A stretch of DNA of 63,484 bases, counting the filler, from Rhabdomonas costata (Eukaryota): assembly GCA_019059605.1 (NCBI GenBank). It is 43 parts of 43 records of this genome, joined end to end, with 100 filler letters (N's around TTAATTAATTAA, not from the genome) between each part and the next. Parts side by side here need not be neighbours in the genome. Positions count along the whole stretch, not along the records: positions 13,320 to 14,698 come from JAHMHO010017681.1; positions 14,799 to 16,178 come from JAHMHO010017682.1; positions 16,279 to 17,655 come from JAHMHO010017683.1; 40 more parts are not named here. One strand, given 5' to 3'. Below are positions 13,220-55,739 of the stretch, in pieces. Position 1 is the first letter of the stretch, and each line of letters begins with the position of its first letter. Under the pieces are notes generated by a model. The model searched no databases and had not been told where the DNA came from. It worked only from the letters and a program-made list of their open reading frames with translations. The translations under genes were made by a program, and so were the position numbers.

Positions 13220-14815
13220 NNNNNNNNNNNNNNNNNNNNNNNNNNNNNNNNNNNNNNNNNNNNTTAATTAATTAANNNNNNNNNNNNNNNNNNNNNNNNN
13301 NNNNNNNNNNNNNNNNNNNGTTGGGTGAACAGGATGTGGGGAGTGTGGAGGGTGGGCTGCGTCCCTGGCTCCGGCACGATCAGCTTGTTAGAGTCAAATC
13401 GCGTCAAACTTATGTAAATCATTTGAACCAGGTCTTCTCATTGACCCTGAACAACTGCCATCGTCTTTTGACGGCTGATTATATGATCTCACGATCCCGG
13501 CCGCCCTTTCCGTTATCGCTCACTTAAAACAGAGGTCATGTTTTCCGTTGCTACGCGCCAAAGGAGCGAGAAAAGTTTCGAGTTTTGAAGCCATATGGAA
13601 TGGTACCCGACGGTACGAGAAGGTTTTGTTTTGTAAGAAGCTCGCAAGGGAGGTCTTTTAGACAATCACAAAACATGTGAAAAGACAAAGGCAAGAATTC
13701 TTTGGTTCTTAGCTTTATCCTACTGGACTTGTTGTTGAACGCGCCAGGTGAACCCTTCGGCCCTGGTTTGGGGAGGATCGTTTCACCCCAAAAACTCAGT
13801 TAATTTTCAGACTCATTTTCTCTCTGTTTTTGTTTATTTTATCACTTATAAGTTAGCCTTCGTTTCTATGTTCTTTCTTTATTCTTAGTTTCTATTTGCG
13901 CTGACCGACTGACCGCCCTGACCGACCGCCACCAGCAATGCACTGTCCAAAACAAAGTTATAACCATGCCCATACCTCAACTCTTACCTCTGACCGATCG
14001 GTAACCGCGGCTCCAGGATCCTCGGGACGTGCTTCACAGCCACCAAAACCAATTTTCCGAAATTTTTCTAGTGTGATCAAATATAAATATTTGGTCTGCG
14101 CGCGGAGCTGGGGCTGCAGGCCGCTGTGGGGCGTGCACGTGGGTCCGCGCGTGCGGTTTCGGTGGCGCTGGTGACGTCCTCGGTAATGGATGCATGCCAG
14201 CCTGCCCTGTGTGGTGCTGGCCCCACTTAAAAGGGCAAGGAAATTAAAACTGGGCGAATGCTAACGGGTTGAGGTTTGTGCGCGGCGTCGCGAGGGGCGA
14301 GGTGGGTGTCTTGTGCCTGAATGTGGTCTGATTTTGGTTCGCCTGTGCCAACACGCAGCTTGCTGGGATCGTCCTTTGATATGCGTCTGTGCATTTGATT
14401 GTGTGTGCGTGTGTGAAAGAAGGGTATGATTGTGCGGGGGAAAGTGTTGGCGCGGGTGCAGATGTGGGCTTGTGCTTGAGTTTGCGTGGGTTCGCAGGTT
14501 ATGGGCTGTGGTTCTGCTGCCGAACCGGAGGACTAACACAGACGTTGCCTTACGGTGGCTGTGTGCGTCTGCTTGATATTCCCATCTGGTTTTTCCCCTC
14601 TCAACTTTTCGGGAGGCTGTGTGGTGCGTCACCCAGGTTTTCCGCATACTTCTTCACCCCCGTCTCTTTCTCGTTAGCTTCTAGCCCCCCCCCACACANN
14701 NNNNNNNNNNNNNNNNNNNNNNNNNNNNNNNNNNNNNNNNNNTTAATTAATTAANNNNNNNNNNNNNNNNNNNNNNNNNNNNNNNNNNNNNNNNNNNNGT
14801 GGTTGTTTTTAAAAT

Positions 14816-14823
14816 AAAATTGA
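14816..14823 (+). promoter_or_regulatory. AAAATTGA, identical to the Mimiviridae early-promoter octamer
   Basis: Exact motif in an AT-rich intergenic stretch 83 nt upstream of the ATG at 14899; could arise by chance in AT-rich DNA. Confidence 0.45.
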
Positions 14824-14898
14824 AATAAAAATGTTTGTATAATGCAATAATACATACATTTGTACATTACAATTTGTAGATGTTTTGTTCATAACAAA

Positions 14899-15309
14899 AT
14901 GGTGCGTTGTCCTCTTTGTCAGGATTTTTGCGTCCGAATGAAGAAAAATCATTACAAATGTTCTCAACATGGAACAATCGTTCCAAGAGTAGGAGGATAT
15001 TACCAACAGACGCAAGTCTCTGCTTTGATGTTTCCGGCATCAACGGATGCATTCTTGATGACGTTGGCCTCTCTTTCGCACACCCAGCTGAAGACTGCAA
15101 GCATTGAGATTTGCAGCAAAATCGGGCCACAGGGGGAGTACATGAAACTGTTAGATTGTCTTCTGAACTTGTACTCCATAAAGGAGGGCACCGACAAGTT
15201 GAACGAGCTGCTCACGTACCTGATCACGATGGTCAGTGCTCGGAACGAATCCCACCGAAAGTCGGCATGTGCTGGAAGCCCACGCGTACTGGAAGCGATG
15301 ATCAACTAG
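14899..15309 (+). CDS. Intronless 136-aa hypothetical protein with an N-terminal Cys/His cluster
   Basis: AAAATG start; MVRCPLCQDFC...HYKCSQH then a helical region; ends in TAG. Confidence 0.55.
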   Translation: MVRCPLCQDFCVRMKKNHYKCSQHGTIVPRVGGYYQQTQVSALMFPASTDAFLMTLASLSHTQLKTASIEICSKIGPQGEYMKLLDCLLNLYSIKEGTDKLNELLTYLITMVSARNESHRKSACAGSPRVLEAMIN

Positions 15310-15395
15310 CAATTATATATTTCGAATATAATTTGAGATATATAATTCAAAAATTATATAAAGAAACAAAAGAATTAGAGAAAAAAACAATAAAA

Positions 15396-16044
15396 ATGCA
15401 CATATTATTTCAAGTAAATTATTTTAAAAAAAATATAAAACATGTATTTGGTTATACGGGAGGATCAGTTATAGCATTATATCAACGATGTTATAAAGAC
15501 AAGATTAATTTTTACATAACAACAAATGAGTTATCCGCATGTCATGCTGCTTCAGGTTATGCAAAATCAACATGTTTAACAGGAATAGGGGTTGTAACAA
15601 GTGGCCCGGGTTTAACAAATTCAATAACAGCATTAATGGATTGTACAAATGATTCAAAACCATTTATTTTATTATCTGGTCAAGTTCCAACAAAAATGTA
15701 AAATAAAGGAGCTTTTCAATCATGTGATGCTGTAGCAATAACAAAACCAATAACAAATTGGAGTTATCAAGTACAATCTGCAAATGAAATGTCATATTGC
15801 ATTGATAAAGCATTTTATATAGCAAATGACAAAAAAAAAAAGGAAGTGTTTTATTAGATATACCAAAGGATGTATTACATTCAATAGTTACATCAAAACA
15901 AATATTTTTGATGATGAAACAGCATATAATTGTAGTGATATAGAAAATGAAAAATGTTTATATGTTAATAATAAAAGTGAAATAAATTATACAAGAATAC
16001 AATCTATAGATGTTATACAAAAATCAAAAATGATTTATGGGTAG
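15396..16044 (+). pseudogene. ilvB: Acetolactate synthase large subunit (ilvB/ilvI family), N-terminal part, disrupted
   Basis: VFGYTGG, NELSACHAASGYAK, VVTSGPGLTNSITALMD, LSGQVP, then TAA at 15699-15701, AFQSCD..ITKPITNWSYQV, frameshift in the A11 run at 15831-15841, GSVLLDIPKDV, a second frameshift and truncation. Confidence 0.92.
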
Positions 16045-16844
16045 TAATTGAAAGAAATGCTGTACCAGATAATATAAATGATACATATGCTGGTTCAATG
16101 ATTGTAACACAAATTAAAGGACAATATATAAAATGGTGTAATGGAGCTCATATAAGTTGTTTTTAAAAACAACCACAANNNNNNNNNNNNNNNNNNNNNN
16201 NNNNNNNNNNNNNNNNNNNNNNTTAATTAATTAANNNNNNNNNNNNNNNNNNNNNNNNNNNNNNNNNNNNNNNNNNNNGTTGGTTTTGTCTTCCTTTTCC
16301 TTTGCGGGGTGGAGGATCCGGCCGGGTGGTGGAGGATCGGGCAAGAGGGGGCATGTCCTGCGGTTGATACACGTTGCTTTCTGAAATGCTAAGCGGTTGG
16401 GTCATAATTTTCTTGAGTGTAGCAGCGTTCTGGGTTGACTGTCTTTTTCACTCCACAATAATCGGTTTTCATTTCTGGTCCGACACCTGAAATTTGCCAG
16501 CAGCACTTGCGCCGTATAAAACGCTTTTTTCGCAAACGTTTTGTTTCACCTGGGAAGAAAACAGAAAGGGACACTCGCCTCATGATCAGAGGCTCCGGGG
16601 GCCAGGTCGTGGTACAGCTCAAATTGGTGCCATGACGGCGTGTCCGCAAAAAGTTTTCGTTGACAACACGGAAAACGTGTCATAGACAGTGTTCTTTGCA
16701 AGCTAGTGACGTGGGAAGCAAAGAAAGGTTGAGTGCATCTACAGAGAACAAGTGTGTAATGTTTCTGAAGAGGCAACAGGAAAGCGAAAAACATCAAATA
16801 TCGACACAGTGCTTCCAACATCGCATTTACTCTGCACTCTTCAG

Positions 16845-32533: not shown

Positions 32534-33361
32534 GATGGGGAATGCCTTGGTGGCGGGGCATTGGTCCCGGCGAACGCACTCCACGCCTTTGGCGTCCAGC
32601 CTGGGGGCATCCTTCTGGTCCGGGGAGTCCCATGCATAGCCCACGTAGCGCTTCTTCGTGACCAGGAAACACGGCTGAAAGACCTTCTCGAGCTTCAGCC
32701 GCAGCGGGGTAGGGTTGGCCGCGGTCACCGCGGCGGCGATCTGCTTGCCCACGGCAAAGGCCCTGACATGCCGCCACCAGATCCCCCCCCCTCTATCACA
32801 TTGCCCGTTGTCTTTCGATGCCCGGTGCCCTTCCCGTCGTCACATCAACTTCCCCTAAAGAAAACTCGTTTCGTAGGGACTGCGGGCAAACACTGCATTT
32901 TGGGGGCACACGGCACATCCCTTCCAACACAAAAAGAAGCGCTCCGCAGGTCTGTATTATTGGGCCCTATTGCCGTTTTATTGCCGTTATATTGCCGTTT
33001 TATTGCCGTTCTATTGCCGTTCTATTGCCGTTTTCCACTCTCCCCGCTCTTTGAGCACAGGACGATGAGAACCCTGGAGCATAAAGAAAGCACGAGCGGA
33101 AAGGAAGAATGAACATTCGCACAACAGCGTCGGTGAGTGAATGAGTAAGTGAGCGAGTGTGTACGTGAAGGGATAGGAGTTGTTGCAGCGACCTCTGGCG
33201 TGTGGGGAAACCCCGCAGGTGGACAAACAGGGAGTCCGTGTCGCCGTAGACCACCTCAGCGTCCCACTCCGGAGTGTGCCCCACCAGGGCCATCGCGCGC
33301 TCCAAGGTGTTGCGCGCAAACAGCACAATCGCGTCCGCAATATCCGAGCACGGCATCCGTC
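32534..33361 (-). CDS. REV3: DNA polymerase zeta catalytic subunit, exons 33361-33193 and 32762-32534
   Basis: GRMPCSDIADAIV..ARNTLERA, VVYGDTDSLFV, LKLEKVFQPCFLVTKKRYVG, LDAKGVECVRRDQCPAT; GRMPC and NPxPxxLKxEK are zeta-type; phase-2 GT-AG intron. Confidence 0.95.
32968..33033. repeat. Minisatellite TATTGCCGTT(T/A/C) x6 in the REV3 intron
   Basis: Six consecutive 11-nt units. Confidence 0.95.
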
Positions 33362-35834
33362 CTAAAGAATCACAACAAGAGCAGAACTAAAGCCGAAGAA
33401 GAACAAGATCCGCCGTCGACTTTGCTTTGTTTTTATAATTTTGCTTTTTCCGGCCGAGGTCTGATGAGGTTCTTGAGATCCCTAGAATCACACATTGAAG
33501 CGCAGTTTCAATGCCTTAAGTGGCCCTTCCGCTCTGCGGTCACGCACTCTGGCTCTTTTTCTGCCTCACATCACGCAAATACACATGTCTCCGGAGAGAA
33601 AGGAGGATTGGGCGGGAATGGGAGGTGGCCCGCAGACCTCAGACATTATCCATCCATCCACCGCACTGAGCTGGGTGTGAAGAGTGAACAATGGAACGGA
33701 TACTATCAGGCACCGAAGTCGGCTCGAATCCATATCATGGCCTAACACGCGGGTCTCGATTAGGCGTTAGAATGAAGGCAACTCTATGGCCCCCAACCCC
33801 TGCGGAACATGGGGGCCAGCATGCCTGGAGATGACGGAGTCTCGAGCAGTCGCGAGATTTAAGACTTAAGATGATGACTGAGGAAGGTCTATCTCTCTCC
33901 CACAAAACCCCCNNNNNNNNNNNNNNNNNNNNNNNNNNNNNNNNNNNNNNNNNNNNTTAATTAATTAANNNNNNNNNNNNNNNNNNNNNNNNNNNNNNNN
34001 NNNNNNNNNNNNGGGTTGTTGGGAAAGTTGGAAGGCATCTGCTCTTCTCAAACTTGCCCAACACCGTCTCTCAAACACACTCCCAATCGCCTTCGTTACA
34101 GATGGGCGGGTACGGTGAGAACGCTGCACGAGAAGGGGTTGGGGGGTGACGAAAAAGAAGAAGTAGAGGGGGAAGAACATTATCAAATGACACCGAACCG
34201 TGCCACCATCCACAGTCATGGTGGACATGAAGGGGTGGGTCATGATGTCACCGTGTTGGTGCTCGAGTTGTTCTTCTGCTGTCCGGCATCAAACCCCACG
34301 TGCTCCCGCCTGTTCTGACATTGGTGTGGGTCTTCTCGACCCTCCCTCATTCTTGAGCTGAATGACAGGTGGTGGCGGTCAGCGGTGGGTCACATTTTGA
34401 GCGGCATCAGGAAAAACTTCAATATTATGAAAAAAAAAAAAGCCCCTCCCCCAGGGGGCGGGGAATTCCCCAAGTTGGATGGCATCACTACCGCATTGTG
34501 AGCGAATCTACCGGATCGCCAGCACTCACCGACCGCCACATTAATACCGATACTCGCAAGGAAAAAGGATAAGAAAAGAAAAGACGTCAATGACGACTTT
34601 CACGGCTTCGGCCCCACTTGGCATTTCCCAACTGCTTCGGCCAAGTGCGCCCGCGAAGAGCCAGAGGTAGCATCCCCAAAGCTGAAAGTTCACGACACAC
34701 AAACCAGCAATTATGTACACAGTGCCGTGAATCGTTTTTTCGCCTATTCTTTTCTCTCTCGTCTTTTTGAGAAATAAAAAGGAGGCCGATCCTCTCCACC
34801 CATTCCCTCAGCACATTGCTGAGGACCACCAGCGCGCGGTTGCGGACTGGGTTGTCGACGGGTGCAGACGCGCAAACATGTGCACCACGAAAAAACTTGA
34901 TAATGGGCACTGCACCAGGGGAGAGTGGCGGGGAAATGGAGAAGGGGGGATTCCCGCAACCCCGAGAACAACAACAGGAGCACGCACCCCTCTGAAGGTC
35001 AAAAGTTGTGGCATCCCCCGCGGGGAGAGGATCCGGAGCCAGACACCTGCACGAGCTTCAAACGATAGTGAACTCAACGTACGTGCTCACGGGTGAGCAG
35101 AGTCGGGCTTGAGTCCTGTGGTTGCAGGAAACGTTTTGCTGGACTTGGGGGTAGTTATGTATGCTCGACCTTTTTTTAGACTCCAAAGACAAATTGCTGA
35201 GGTCCTGATTTTGATTTCTTCGTTTGATGGGGAGAATGGGGGGAGGATGGTCTCTCGGGGTAGTGCGGGCAGTGCGGGGTAGTGCACCAACTAATGCAAC
35301 TTTTCCGATCAAGTTACTCACGCAGGTGACTGGGCTCACATCTCCCTTGGCTTCGCTGACCCTTCACACCTCGAAAAAATAAACAAACACANNNNNNNNN
35401 NNNNNNNNNNNNNNNNNNNNNNNNNNNNNNNNNNNTTAATTAATTAANNNNNNNNNNNNNNNNNNNNNNNNNNNNNNNNNNNNNNNNNNNNTTTGTTTGG
35501 GTGTGGTGTGTTTGGTTTGGGTTGTTTGAAGTGGGTGAGAAGGAGGGGGTTGGGGTGGACGAGGGAGTATTAGTCGCCGCGGATGCGGATCGCTGTGGAC
35601 GGGGCTGAGGGTGAAGCCAACATGCATTGCCTGAGAAAAAATGCGACCATCGTTCTTGTAGGCCGAGACAGAATGCCGAAGAAAGAATCCTGCAAAACAG
35701 AATCAGGGAATCTGCTTCAGCCCGAGGATTTGCTCTTTTTCCCGATGCACCACCCGTCGTTGTCATCTATGAGGAATATCCTTTCCTGCGCACACTTAAA
35801 AAAAAACACGCGAGCACCACCTAGCAAAACTCGT

Positions 35835-48918: not shown

Positions 48919-49999
48919 TTGCAAAGCGTAGCACAGGAACCTCACTCCCTCATGCTGACGGAAGTGCTCAACGTAGGTCTTGCTCTGGTCGGGAATGAAC
49001 GCGTAGGCCAAAGGCTCCGGCTCAGGAGTCTGGATGGGACTCCCTTTGCTCACTCTCATGGCCATCACCTCGCTGCGAATCTGCCCCGTTTTGCAAAAAA
49101 TCGAATGTAGGTGGAGGTGGAGGGTGGATCAGGGAGGACGAGATTAAGTTAGACAACCAAAACTTCATCGGCTTGGGACGGCAAACAAAACAAAAGGTTC
49201 TTTTCGAAGTCCAAAAAGTCCAAAAAGCTTCAAACATGAACCTCATAAAATCAGCCAAACGCTCCTTTGCTGCCATTTTTGCAGGCCACAGGTGGGTTAC
49301 GTGTGAAAGCAACGCGAAGCTTCAGGAAAGAGAAGACAGTTACAAGGAAAAATGAGACAGTTAACAAAGGCGAACAGTAGTCCTCGGCAGCTGCGATAAG
49401 AATGAGATAATTGACAAAAGTGCCAAGGACACTTCCATGCCCACCTGATTCAGATAATCGTCAGTGAAGCTAAAACCCACGTACAGGATAGTCCGGCAGG
49501 ACATCAAGCTCTTCAAAAAGGTAGGATAGGCTGGGCACTTGTGCAGCAGCTTGCGGTAGCCCTCGCTGGAGAGCACAAGCCGGGCGTTATCGCAGCCATT
49601 TGGAGCCAGCCCAGTTTCCCTCACGCTGCCGTGAAGCTGGAGAATGGGTCGGGGCTTCCTTCCGTCGGGGCGAAACCGGAGAATGTCCAAGTAGGATGGC
49701 CCTTTTTCCATCAAAGGCGTTGGCCAAGCACAGAGACTGCACACGAGGTTGCGCGGGCTACCACGTAAGTCAGATGCCATAGCCTGAACCGAGCCCTCCA
49801 AAGCGAAGCAGCCTCCCCCCATGCACCGGCACAGCTCTTGGGAGTAATTCGTGGTAAGCACAGCGTTGAATTTGATGCACTCGACATGCTCCAGTCGGGA
49901 GGCCATAACTGGAAACTTGGCTCGCTTTTCGCGGATTTTGGAGCCCTTCTCAACGGACTTTAGATGTTCCACAATAAACTCCTGCAGGTCGATCTTGTC
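48919..49999 (-). CDS. SIR2-like domain protein (SIR2_2/PF13289 type), exons 49999-49445 and 49080 to about 48919
   Basis: AVLTTNYS, ILQLHGS, LVLSSEGY, FLKSLMSCRTILYVGFSFTDDYLNQ/IRSEV; phase-0 GT-AG intron 49444-49081. Confidence 0.88.
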
Positions 50000-50287
50000 C
50001 TGTGTCATAGAAACACATTAGAAATGCAATTTCAGCTGAACACAGGGGCGAGGGGCATTATCCTCCCCGTCAGCATTTGGCCAGTTCGGGGCGAAGACAG
50101 GACTAAATACAATGTTCAATACTCCGAGATCAGACAACCAACAGACCCTGAAACCGATACGCCACGCCAATCCAGTTAANNNNNNNNNNNNNNNNNNNNN
50201 NNNNNNNNNNNNNNNNNNNNNNNTTAATTAATTAANNNNNNNNNNNNNNNNNNNNNNNNNNNNNNNNNNNNNNNNNNNNGGTTTGGG

Positions 50288-54739: not shown

Positions 54740-55739
54740 TGCGCGGGAACAGTTGTCGCCAACTGTGGTCCAGTTGTTGACATTGCCGAAAAGAGATTTG
54801 GAATTCCAGGAATCACTGAGCTGCTCACAGAACCGTACGAAAACTTCGGAGCTGACTGGTCTCTGCTACCTGATGTCAAAAACGCCGTGCTTCATGAGAA
54901 TGGAGTATAACCATACCTCATTGTATCAAACTCCATTCCTGTTCCCTCAGCTGCGACGGACTTTTTCAGCGACTCTTCTGGCACTGCTACAATCACTTGG
55001 GGCGGGTCTCGGCTTGCGATAATAATCCCAGGCTTTTTCAATTGCTTCTTCCAAAGATTGCGGATCATCCGCCATCACCTTTGCCTGGATGTAACCCTCC
55101 AATCCCCTCACAAACAAGTACTGCAGCTGCGCGTCACCGTCAAATCTCGTACCCTTCAAAAGTCCTAAACCCGTCACAAACTTCTGGTGATAATCTTGGA
55201 AATCCCCATTCTTCATTCGCAAGTTCTCCAACCTCCAAACCACATTGTAGTCCCACGTTGAAGGGAAAAACCGCTTCCGCAAAGTTTTAGTAAAATTCGC
55301 CCAATCTGCGAAAGTCTGCTCTGGAGCGATAATTCTCCTTGCGAACGAACTGAGCGCTCCTGGTGCATACACAATGGCAATTTGATTTGGGACCCTACGA
55401 AAGTCCTTCAGCTCCTCCACTGCCATCAACCGAGGGAGGAAATTAGCTGCGTTCCCGTCGTATCTGGGAAACTCGGGGTCCTTTTCCTGCAGTTTACGAA
55501 GCGCTCCACTCACTGACTCAGCCTGATTTGGCACAACTGTTACGGGTACTGCTGCTCTTCCGGCTCCTGGGCCCTCTTCACCACTTGGCAGTCCACCCGT
55601 TACTCTTAATCTATGAACCAGACTGCTGTGTCGCCCTCTGCTGCTCTTCAAGCTGTCGAAACAGCGACGCTGAGTGAGTCAGGAAAGATTGAAATGTCTG
55701 CTCCATGCATTGCGCTGGGGGTGTGCCTTCTTCTGACAT
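54740..55739 (-). mobile_element. Ty3/gypsy-type LTR retrotransposon Gag, disrupted
   Basis: FPRYDG, DWANFTKTLRKRFFP, LENLRM..GDFQDYHQKF, LFVRGL..YIQAKV, PQSLEEAIEKA; ATG at 55739 joins via a frameshift near 55620; decayed zinc knuckle near 54745-54795. Confidence 0.85.

Follow-up and report, generated by a model that had tools for sequence, protein, structure and literature searches.

A fragment of a Mimiviridae-type giant virus with a broken acetolactate synthase in the Rhabdomonas costata assembly, probably from an endogenous copy

The stretch of DNA analyzed here (the window; 63,484 nucleotides from the Rhabdomonas costata assembly GCA_019059605.1) comprises 43 unlinked contigs, each roughly 1,380 bp long, with spacers of the form N44-TTAATTAATTAA-N44 between them. 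One entire contig, C17682 (G000:C17682; 1,380 bp at 14799-16178), stands apart in composition: its GC content is 25.0% between 15310 and 16168, against 43.0% in the lowest 859-nt stretch of any other window contig, which bears out the remark of an earlier sequence-only reading that it is far more AT-rich than the others from about 15310 on. It shows a distinctive organization (Table 1): the early-promoter motif AAAATTGA, an orphan open reading frame (ORF) and a 3' hairpin are followed by the remains of an acetolactate synthase (ALS), which run into a piece of a second viral-type gene. Sequence comparisons support the view that C17682 is a fragment from a giant virus of Mimiviridae type (Imitervirales, klosneuvirus-like), and it is fairly probable that it is endogenous, i.e. 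one of several related, decaying Mimiviridae-type copies in host chromosomes.

Table 1. Features along contig C17682, in window coordinates (GC3, GC content at third codon positions; iE, independent E-value).
Position	Strand	Feature	Evidence
14799..14808	+	G/T-only contig end; amplification primer remnant, no viral terminus	54/86 ends vs 1.3 expected
14816..14823	+	Early-promoter motif AAAATTGA, 75 nt ahead of the ATG; leader of 18% GC	
14899..15309	+	Orphan ORF, 136 aa, 48% GC, GC3 0.57; GC-rich early-gene class	Composition
15311..15347	+	17-bp stem with 3-nt loop immediately 3' of the ORF stop; Mimiviridae-type 3' hairpin	-13.3 kcal/mol, z -6.2
15362..15424	+	Frame-3 piece resembling the first ALS helix, without ATG	Profile score 8.8, suggestive
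15396..15698	+	First open ALS piece: N-terminal PYR domain with its catalytic Glu retained	PF02776 E 4.6e-24, alignment, tree
15699..15701	+	TAA in frame within the PYR domain	
15702..15841	+	Second ALS piece, up to and including an A11 run (15831-15841) with a frame change there	Piece iE 3.3e-19
15842..16023	+	Third ALS piece (GSVLLDIPKD), then the probable linker, reaching the start of the central domain	Profile positions 161-218
16017..16024	+	Junction of ALS with another viral-type gene	C26836 also shares 6/7 bases ahead of the perfect match
16020..16166	+	Piece of an AT-rich gene (WVVIERN...), family not assigned	94 bp 99% identical to C26836
16169..16178	-	G/T-only contig end; primer remnant	54/86 ends vs 1.3 expected

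By their layout, AAAATTGA, orphan ORF and hairpin would together form a complete Mimiviridae-type early transcription unit. Motif and hairpin are both listed as Mimiviridae signatures (PMC6163669, PMC5871332; here and below, statements on cited papers refer to the accessible portions of their text), and the AAAATTGA early genes of mimivirus likewise have the motif ahead of orphan genes and a hairpin after them (PMC6163669, PMC2211322). Across the assembly, AAAATTGA in A/T context occurs 103 times, as opposed to 16 for the reversed control; the match on C131 and several others are chance matches in host DNA. On C17682 itself the single AAAATTGA is at chance level, with at least one copy in 82 of 200 shuffles, so that of the earlier claim of a motif upstream of an ORF the position holds and the significance on this contig does not. 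The hairpin, which the sequence-only reading had missed along with the 48% GC of the orphan ORF, was equalled in stability by none of 200 shuffles, and only 11 of the 24 ORFs scored are followed by hairpins with z <= -2, one of these probably being a fold-back artefact. The end of the orphan ORF coincides with the drop to 25% GC. Its product has an N-terminal Cys/His cluster, possibly a zinc ribbon, and a C-terminus predicted to be helical. No homologue was found in Pfam, in the assembly or in the Atlas (best 0.81), a search of a 5.8-billion-protein set among proteins of near length returned two candidates and no match, and the fold model was uninformative (pLDDT 41).

The ALS homology is clear from PF02776 (E 1.3e-26), and the best profile is TIGR00118, the biosynthetic type. 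The region 15396-16023 encodes the PYR domain, with the invariant catalytic Glu expected of TIGR00118 members, and probably the linker; the central FAD-binding and C-terminal thiamine diphosphate (ThDP)-binding domains, which should follow in one open frame of about 560-600 aa, are absent, since homology stops near profile position 218 and about 218 of some 600 positions are left. On account of the stop, the frame changes and the loss of these two domains, it is predicted to be a pseudogene fragment incapable of making the enzyme. Of the one nonsense codon and two frameshifts reported in the sequence-only reading, the TAA and the change in the A11 run stand, the latter well supported by the piece downstream of it (iE 7.8e-6), while the change in the T5 run (15905-15909), in the linker region, is weakly supported (piece score 1.7). 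A third, probable change in the T4/A8 run (15422-15433) had escaped notice: for the conserved first ALS helix, frame 3 gives a score of 8.8 and frame 1 one of -9.2, the former being the top of 828 ten-mers, only just ahead of the next at 8.3. Odd residues of the ALS were considered as signs of decay and rejected as such, with 7 of 39 deviations at conserved sites as against 6 of 47 in the intact protein P0162 and up to 8 in relatives. Two of the deviations are common to P0162, and the AFQSCDAV variant is present in both the C17682 ALS and the 607-aa P0162; it is therefore a lineage trait and not decay. A transit peptide in the long frame-1 extension ahead of the ALS ATG was likewise rejected, because this extension runs across the hairpin.

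The best matches of the ALS are proteins from metagenome-assembled genomes of giant viruses (GVMAGs; 56-58% identity) and one unnamed protein (60%), the other listed rows, of bacterial type, lying at 41-47%. A quick tree of the PYR domain (127 rows, with 113 of 162 candidate proteins kept by length and the stop read as X) includes five named bacterial rows and no named eukaryote, plastid or prasinovirus rows; it puts the C17682 ALS, separately from the named bacteria, into a clade of 30 rows (SH-aLRT 99). This clade holds all five ALS from giant-virus contigs, a second ALS of the assembly on C18515 and the C17682 piece, and 23 of its 30 rows are unnamed. Thus, of the link to ALS of nucleocytoplasmic large DNA viruses (NCLDVs) such as prasinoviruses that had been drawn earlier, the giant-virus part holds but is not specific to prasinoviruses, the nearest rows being AT-rich GVMAG and unnamed proteins. 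ALS is known from prasinoviruses and asfarvirus MAGs (PMC8005611, PMC5454428); with giant-virus ALS of this kind, including GVMAG records L003-L009, the C17682 ALS shares the TIGR00118-type catalytic subunit and the GVMAG clade, and it differs from them in being truncated, disrupted and not functional. Several of the giant-virus ALS (L003-L009) bear basic N-terminal extensions of 20-35 residues with RY/RNY motifs, which resemble mitochondrial targeting peptides, a putative assignment. The ALS on C18515 (L015:1-1350) is open for about 430 codons and 40% identical to that of C17682, which suggests two viral lineages or paralogues; the end of its contig is a fold-back artefact. Loss of the ALS is in itself ordinary.

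The truncated ALS was earlier thought to pass into unrelated sequence, a claim that has to be abandoned: the WVVIERN tail is 99% identical, over 16020-16113, to the AT-rich contig C26836. The gene in question is frameshifted on C26836 and has open paralogues on C66996 and C54760, and the Atlas feature matches of the C17682 piece are to unnamed, partly viral clusters (0.92-0.94, with a low recognition score). The junction must be read against the nature of the library. Six G/T-only bases open 54 of the 86 window contig ends (1.3 expected), and at most ends the G/T-only stretch is about 10 bases long and can mimic terminal repeats or telomeres; such ends mark primer-based whole-genome amplification, presumably with the G/T-only primers of an amplification kit. 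An apparent terminal inverted repeat of C17682 was accordingly rejected, both of its ends being such remnants. Fold-back arms are present at 9 ends among 32 loci. The library is amplified and chimera-prone, which calls for caution over junctions and homopolymer slips; non-self-complementary primers and chimeras are mentioned for whole-genome amplification in the literature (PMC9102663). That the ALS junction alone is an artefact is quite possible, if on the less probable side.

The assembly (97 Mb, 104,289 contigs) consists in bulk of a eukaryote of about 52% GC, whose own ALS on C34496 has a GT-AG intron. C17682 itself has none of the capsid, VLTF3 and RNA polymerase genes that typify the Nucleocytoviricota; these lie on other contigs of like composition (19-40% GC), with five matches to the NCLDV capsid, one to VLTF3, one RPB2 piece, RPB5, TFIIB and NAD ligase. 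The hallmark search proposed in the sequence-only reading yielded capsid and VLTF3; in this fragmentary assembly there were no candidates for A32 ATPase, and all 13 PolB matches were on contigs of 46-56% GC, none of them AT-rich, the best being a fungal Pol alpha. The sample is mixed, in that C60993 (L042) carries a fungal, Sordariomycete-type DNA polymerase alpha 96% identical to named fungal proteins, which was rejected as a viral polymerase. A fold search with a capsid piece has Klosneuvirus KNV1 in its top row (53% identity; low-confidence model, pLDDT 48), giving a lead toward a klosneuvirus-like placement at subfamily level. Querying viral contigs with the second ALS, the tail-gene paralogue and the RPB5 N-terminus turned up no close relative. 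The giant-virus origin advanced in the sequence-only reading is therefore upheld by the ALS tree, the GVMAG best matches and the hallmark genes on contigs of the same composition.

Several core genes of this virus are duplicated, broken or rearranged. RPB5 has one open copy alongside five variant ones (86-96% identity; loci L235, L193, L232, L013, L254, L255, L258), four of the variants having frame-breaking indels or stops and one being 5'-truncated; one of the four lesions, on C50005, is near a contig end and may be an artefact. In comparisons that share one reference, 52 changes are synonymous and 43 non-synonymous, where neutrality would give 19% synonymous, and because of this excess the copies appear to have diverged as working genes and to have broken later. 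Behind three of the copies lie early ORFs that are GC-rich and Cys-rich and differ from one another. One capsid paralogue is likewise broken, as is the sole viral RPB2 piece recovered, so that erosion extends over RPB5, RPB2, a capsid paralogue and the ALS. The RPB2 piece (C32684, L265) bears an intein-like insertion, and its frame changes within a run of AT dinucleotides; C6302 (L013) is a mosaic of broken pieces of a capsid paralogue, a NifS-like aminotransferase, a nuclease-like gene and RPB5. A repeated element at L186:1278-1713 and L239, with copies 95% identical, grades from host-like into AT-rich coding DNA and is possibly a polinton-like or other mobile element.

Two different host repeats, both high-copy, enter DNA of the viral type. 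On C7272 (L252:1258-1600), viral-type DNA of 24% GC is interrupted by a 343-bp element that has terminal inverted repeats and is flanked on each side by TA. Of 248 candidates, 43 scored as matches to it; the other loci fetched, 18 in all, have flanks of 44-59% GC, none with the motif. We take the element to be a Tc1/mariner-like miniature inverted-repeat transposable element (MITE). On C24281 (L202:1-468), viral promoter DNA begins directly at the end of a second host repeat, which contains internal tandem units; of this repeat there are 45 scored matches among 332 candidates, and five loci, C24281 included, share the same end base plus TA. Chimeras formed at random during amplification would not break exactly at the ends of elements. 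Other candidate junctions did not survive. GC-rich segments on viral contigs were mostly rejected as host junctions and fall in a class of their own (16 of 22, as against 2 of 126 host pieces, which are largely non-coding, so that the contrast is partly one of coding versus non-coding DNA); a host-like segment on C10388 was dropped as single-copy; and the host contig C22914 (L425 end), which closes with 62 bases matching a viral gene on C516, is probably an amplification chimera.

In the history that we favor, the viral RNA polymerase of a free ancestor would have read the orphan gene early, with the hairpin setting its 3' end, and an intact ALS may have fed branched-chain amino-acid synthesis for virion production. 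Several related strains would then have integrated and selection ceased, whereupon homopolymer slips and one stop accumulated in the ALS, a deletion presumably joined it to another viral gene, and host TA-targeting transposons inserted in other parts of the viral insert. A number of observations weigh against endogeny or against tying C17682 to it. C17682 contains no host DNA, and no long host flank was seen on the viral contigs examined; it shows no CpG loss (observed/expected 0.78, with 0.29-1.47 across 47 AT-rich contigs); all of its frame changes lie in homopolymers; and C7272 and C24281 are assigned to the same virus only by composition and promoter context. Neither the ALS region, in this respect unlike RPB5, nor the ligase gene has a second copy in the assembly. 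Much of the virus seems intact, with 28 open viral ORFs (23,292 bp) including the ligase, VLTF3, capsid paralogues and the second ALS. Host MITEs enter free pandoravirus genomes (PMC6004678), and the replicating Bodo saltans virus (BsV) has genes broken by nonsense changes and rearrangements (PMC5871332). The earlier claim of a decaying endogenous segment thus survives as the most likely reading, with its support coming from other contigs (RPB5 and the host repeats), whereas the lesions of C17682, given the BsV pseudogenes, the homopolymer frame changes and an amplified chimeric library, are no proof of it.

Much of this would also fit a replicating mimivirid of several strains, infecting or ingested, that was co-amplified with the cell, in which a dispensable ALS was lost and host transposons hitch-hiked during infection: many core ORFs are open, variant copies stand at 96-99% identity with mostly purifying patterns, BsV offers the parallel in pseudogenes, foreign fungal DNA is in the sample, and a second, open ALS of the viral clade exists. 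We regard this as unlikely, though worth serious attention, as essential genes are broken (several RPB5 copies and the sole RPB2 piece), two different host repeats sit at TA in viral-type DNA, and the viral contigs are short and absent from the first 20 contigs, which are all host-like at 50-57% GC, so that the virus is not the dominant DNA. Moreover, the cytoplasmic factories in which mimivirids replicate keep them apart from host transposases. There is a slim chance that the ALS was intact in life and that amplification and assembly made its stop, slips and junction, as the primer-tagged contig ends, the fold-back arms, the homopolymer frame changes, the short similarity at the junction and the documented chimeras (PMC9102663) would allow; against it, the four or five lesions within about 630 bp include a substitution, 43 A/T runs of 7-9 nt in the 28 open viral ORFs show no slip (ORFs chosen for openness, which thus give no true rate), and the 4-7-nt indels and 4-14% divergence of the broken RPB5 copies are not made by amplification. 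Least probable by far is the degenerating AT-rich bacterial endosymbiont, or organelle DNA, that the sequence-only reading kept as its main alternative: an AT-rich, intronless contig with a pseudogene of an enzyme common in bacteria would suit it, but the grouping of the ALS with giant-virus rows and not with named bacterial ones, the Mimiviridae-type promoter and hairpin, and the NCLDV genes on companion contigs lead us to reject it.

The orphan ORF of C17682 belongs to a wider class. The DNA behind motifs in A/T context is bimodal, with at least 38% GC at 28 of 63 sites, the corresponding figures in IMG/VR being 1 of 39 sites around capsid or ALS genes and 10 of 119 in 109 loci selected by motif (80 of 122 stretches with full flanks used). 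Motif-driven ORFs with GC3 of at least 0.35 number 22 of 49 here and 6 of 92 in other giant viruses (p 1e-7); the class thresholds were chosen after inspection of the data, and the contigs were sampled by motif. The GC-rich motif ORFs have a longer distance from motif to ATG (median 94 vs 59 nt). Several are, to judge from sequence, real genes, with dual-specificity phosphatase matches among them (E 1e-22 to 1e-25), and adjoin AT-rich genes on the same contigs, including the open RPB5 copy. GC content at synonymous third positions (GC3s) is 0.08 in core genes, 0.45 in the GC-selected early set, 0.58 in four long, unverified host ORFs and 0.54 in the C17682 orphan ORF. No published description of such a class was found in a literature search covering mostly non-subscription papers without supplements; giant-virus islands are described as only about 2% higher in GC (PMC13620141). 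In mimivirus the motif genes are not compositionally distinct (43/402 vs 40/508 anomalous, p 0.16; PMC2211322), unlike the motif-driven ORFs here, which divide between an AT class and one of GC3 0.35-0.67 whose leaders are longer.

We tentatively propose that these contigs represent an undescribed, two-tier mimivirid, with about half of its AAAATTGA genes having near host-like synonymous codons and long leaders, its core and late genes having GC3 of about 0.1, and several strains being integrated in a euglenid-like host; the proposal remains doubtful. With comparable reserve, the GC-rich class may be tuned for translation. The unmodified host cytosolic tRNA pool would then translate the GC-rich early genes in the first hour, and the AT-rich core and late genes would be translated locally at the factory. 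An adaptive reading is opposed by the codon-use correlation with the host, which is only 0.28, by some GC-rich ORFs that lack a motif within 160 nt, and by the negative outcome of a crude within-assembly test of GC3 by motif (18 of 40 ORFs with the motif, 26 of 72 in a comparison group that included host contigs and antisense frames).

Three further observations concern other parts of the window: a Ty3/gypsy gag piece (PF19259, PF03732) at 54950-55678 (-), an ORF of 218 open codons with a SIR2-like domain (PF13289, E 6e-12) at 49364-50017 (-), and a host-type family B DNA polymerase exon at 33003-33386 (-) on C17694.

Giant endogenous elements are already known; new here are the transposon evidence, the RPB5 evidence and the GC-rich early class. 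The closest parallel is presented by the giant endogenous viral elements of Euglena gracilis (PMC12455990), which are likewise AT-rich (25-37% GC) in a host of about 51% GC, with duplicated or missing markers, invasion by transposable elements and several related inserts. Those belong to the Asfuvirales, their chromosomal location is shown and their duplicated markers are reported not to be pseudogenised, whereas the virus of C17682 is Mimiviridae-like, has frameshifted core genes, and is placed in chromosomes from short contigs. With BsV and the klosneuviruses (PMC5871332) it shares about 25% GC in a host of about 50%, the AAAAATTGA early motif, 3' hairpins (clear behind the orphan ORF of C17682), duplicated genes and pseudogenes made by nonsense changes and rearrangements. 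BsV differs in being a free lytic isolate with uniformly AT-rich codon bias; the accessible part of that paper describes no GC-rich class of early genes, and neither transposon insertions from the host nor breakage of RNA polymerase subunits feature in it. Integrated, pseudogenised capsid genes are known in amoebae (PMC11702301).

Most klosneuvirus-like genomes have no known host. BsV is named as the one virus isolate known from Discoba, the Euglena inserts being Asfuvirales (PMC12455990). Host transposons in viral DNA tie the virus to the main cell of the assembly, which capsid genes alone cannot do. If the endogenous reading is true, a Mimiviridae insert in a presumably euglenid-like host would be a second lineage beside the Asfuvirales, and would provide a Mimiviridae fossil record in a lineage where the literature search found asfuvirus inserts only. 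The split between AT-rich and GC-rich early genes bears on the problem that GC-rich hosts pose for AT-rich mimivirids (PMC12872441, PMC11702301), and may offer a test of this within a single genome.

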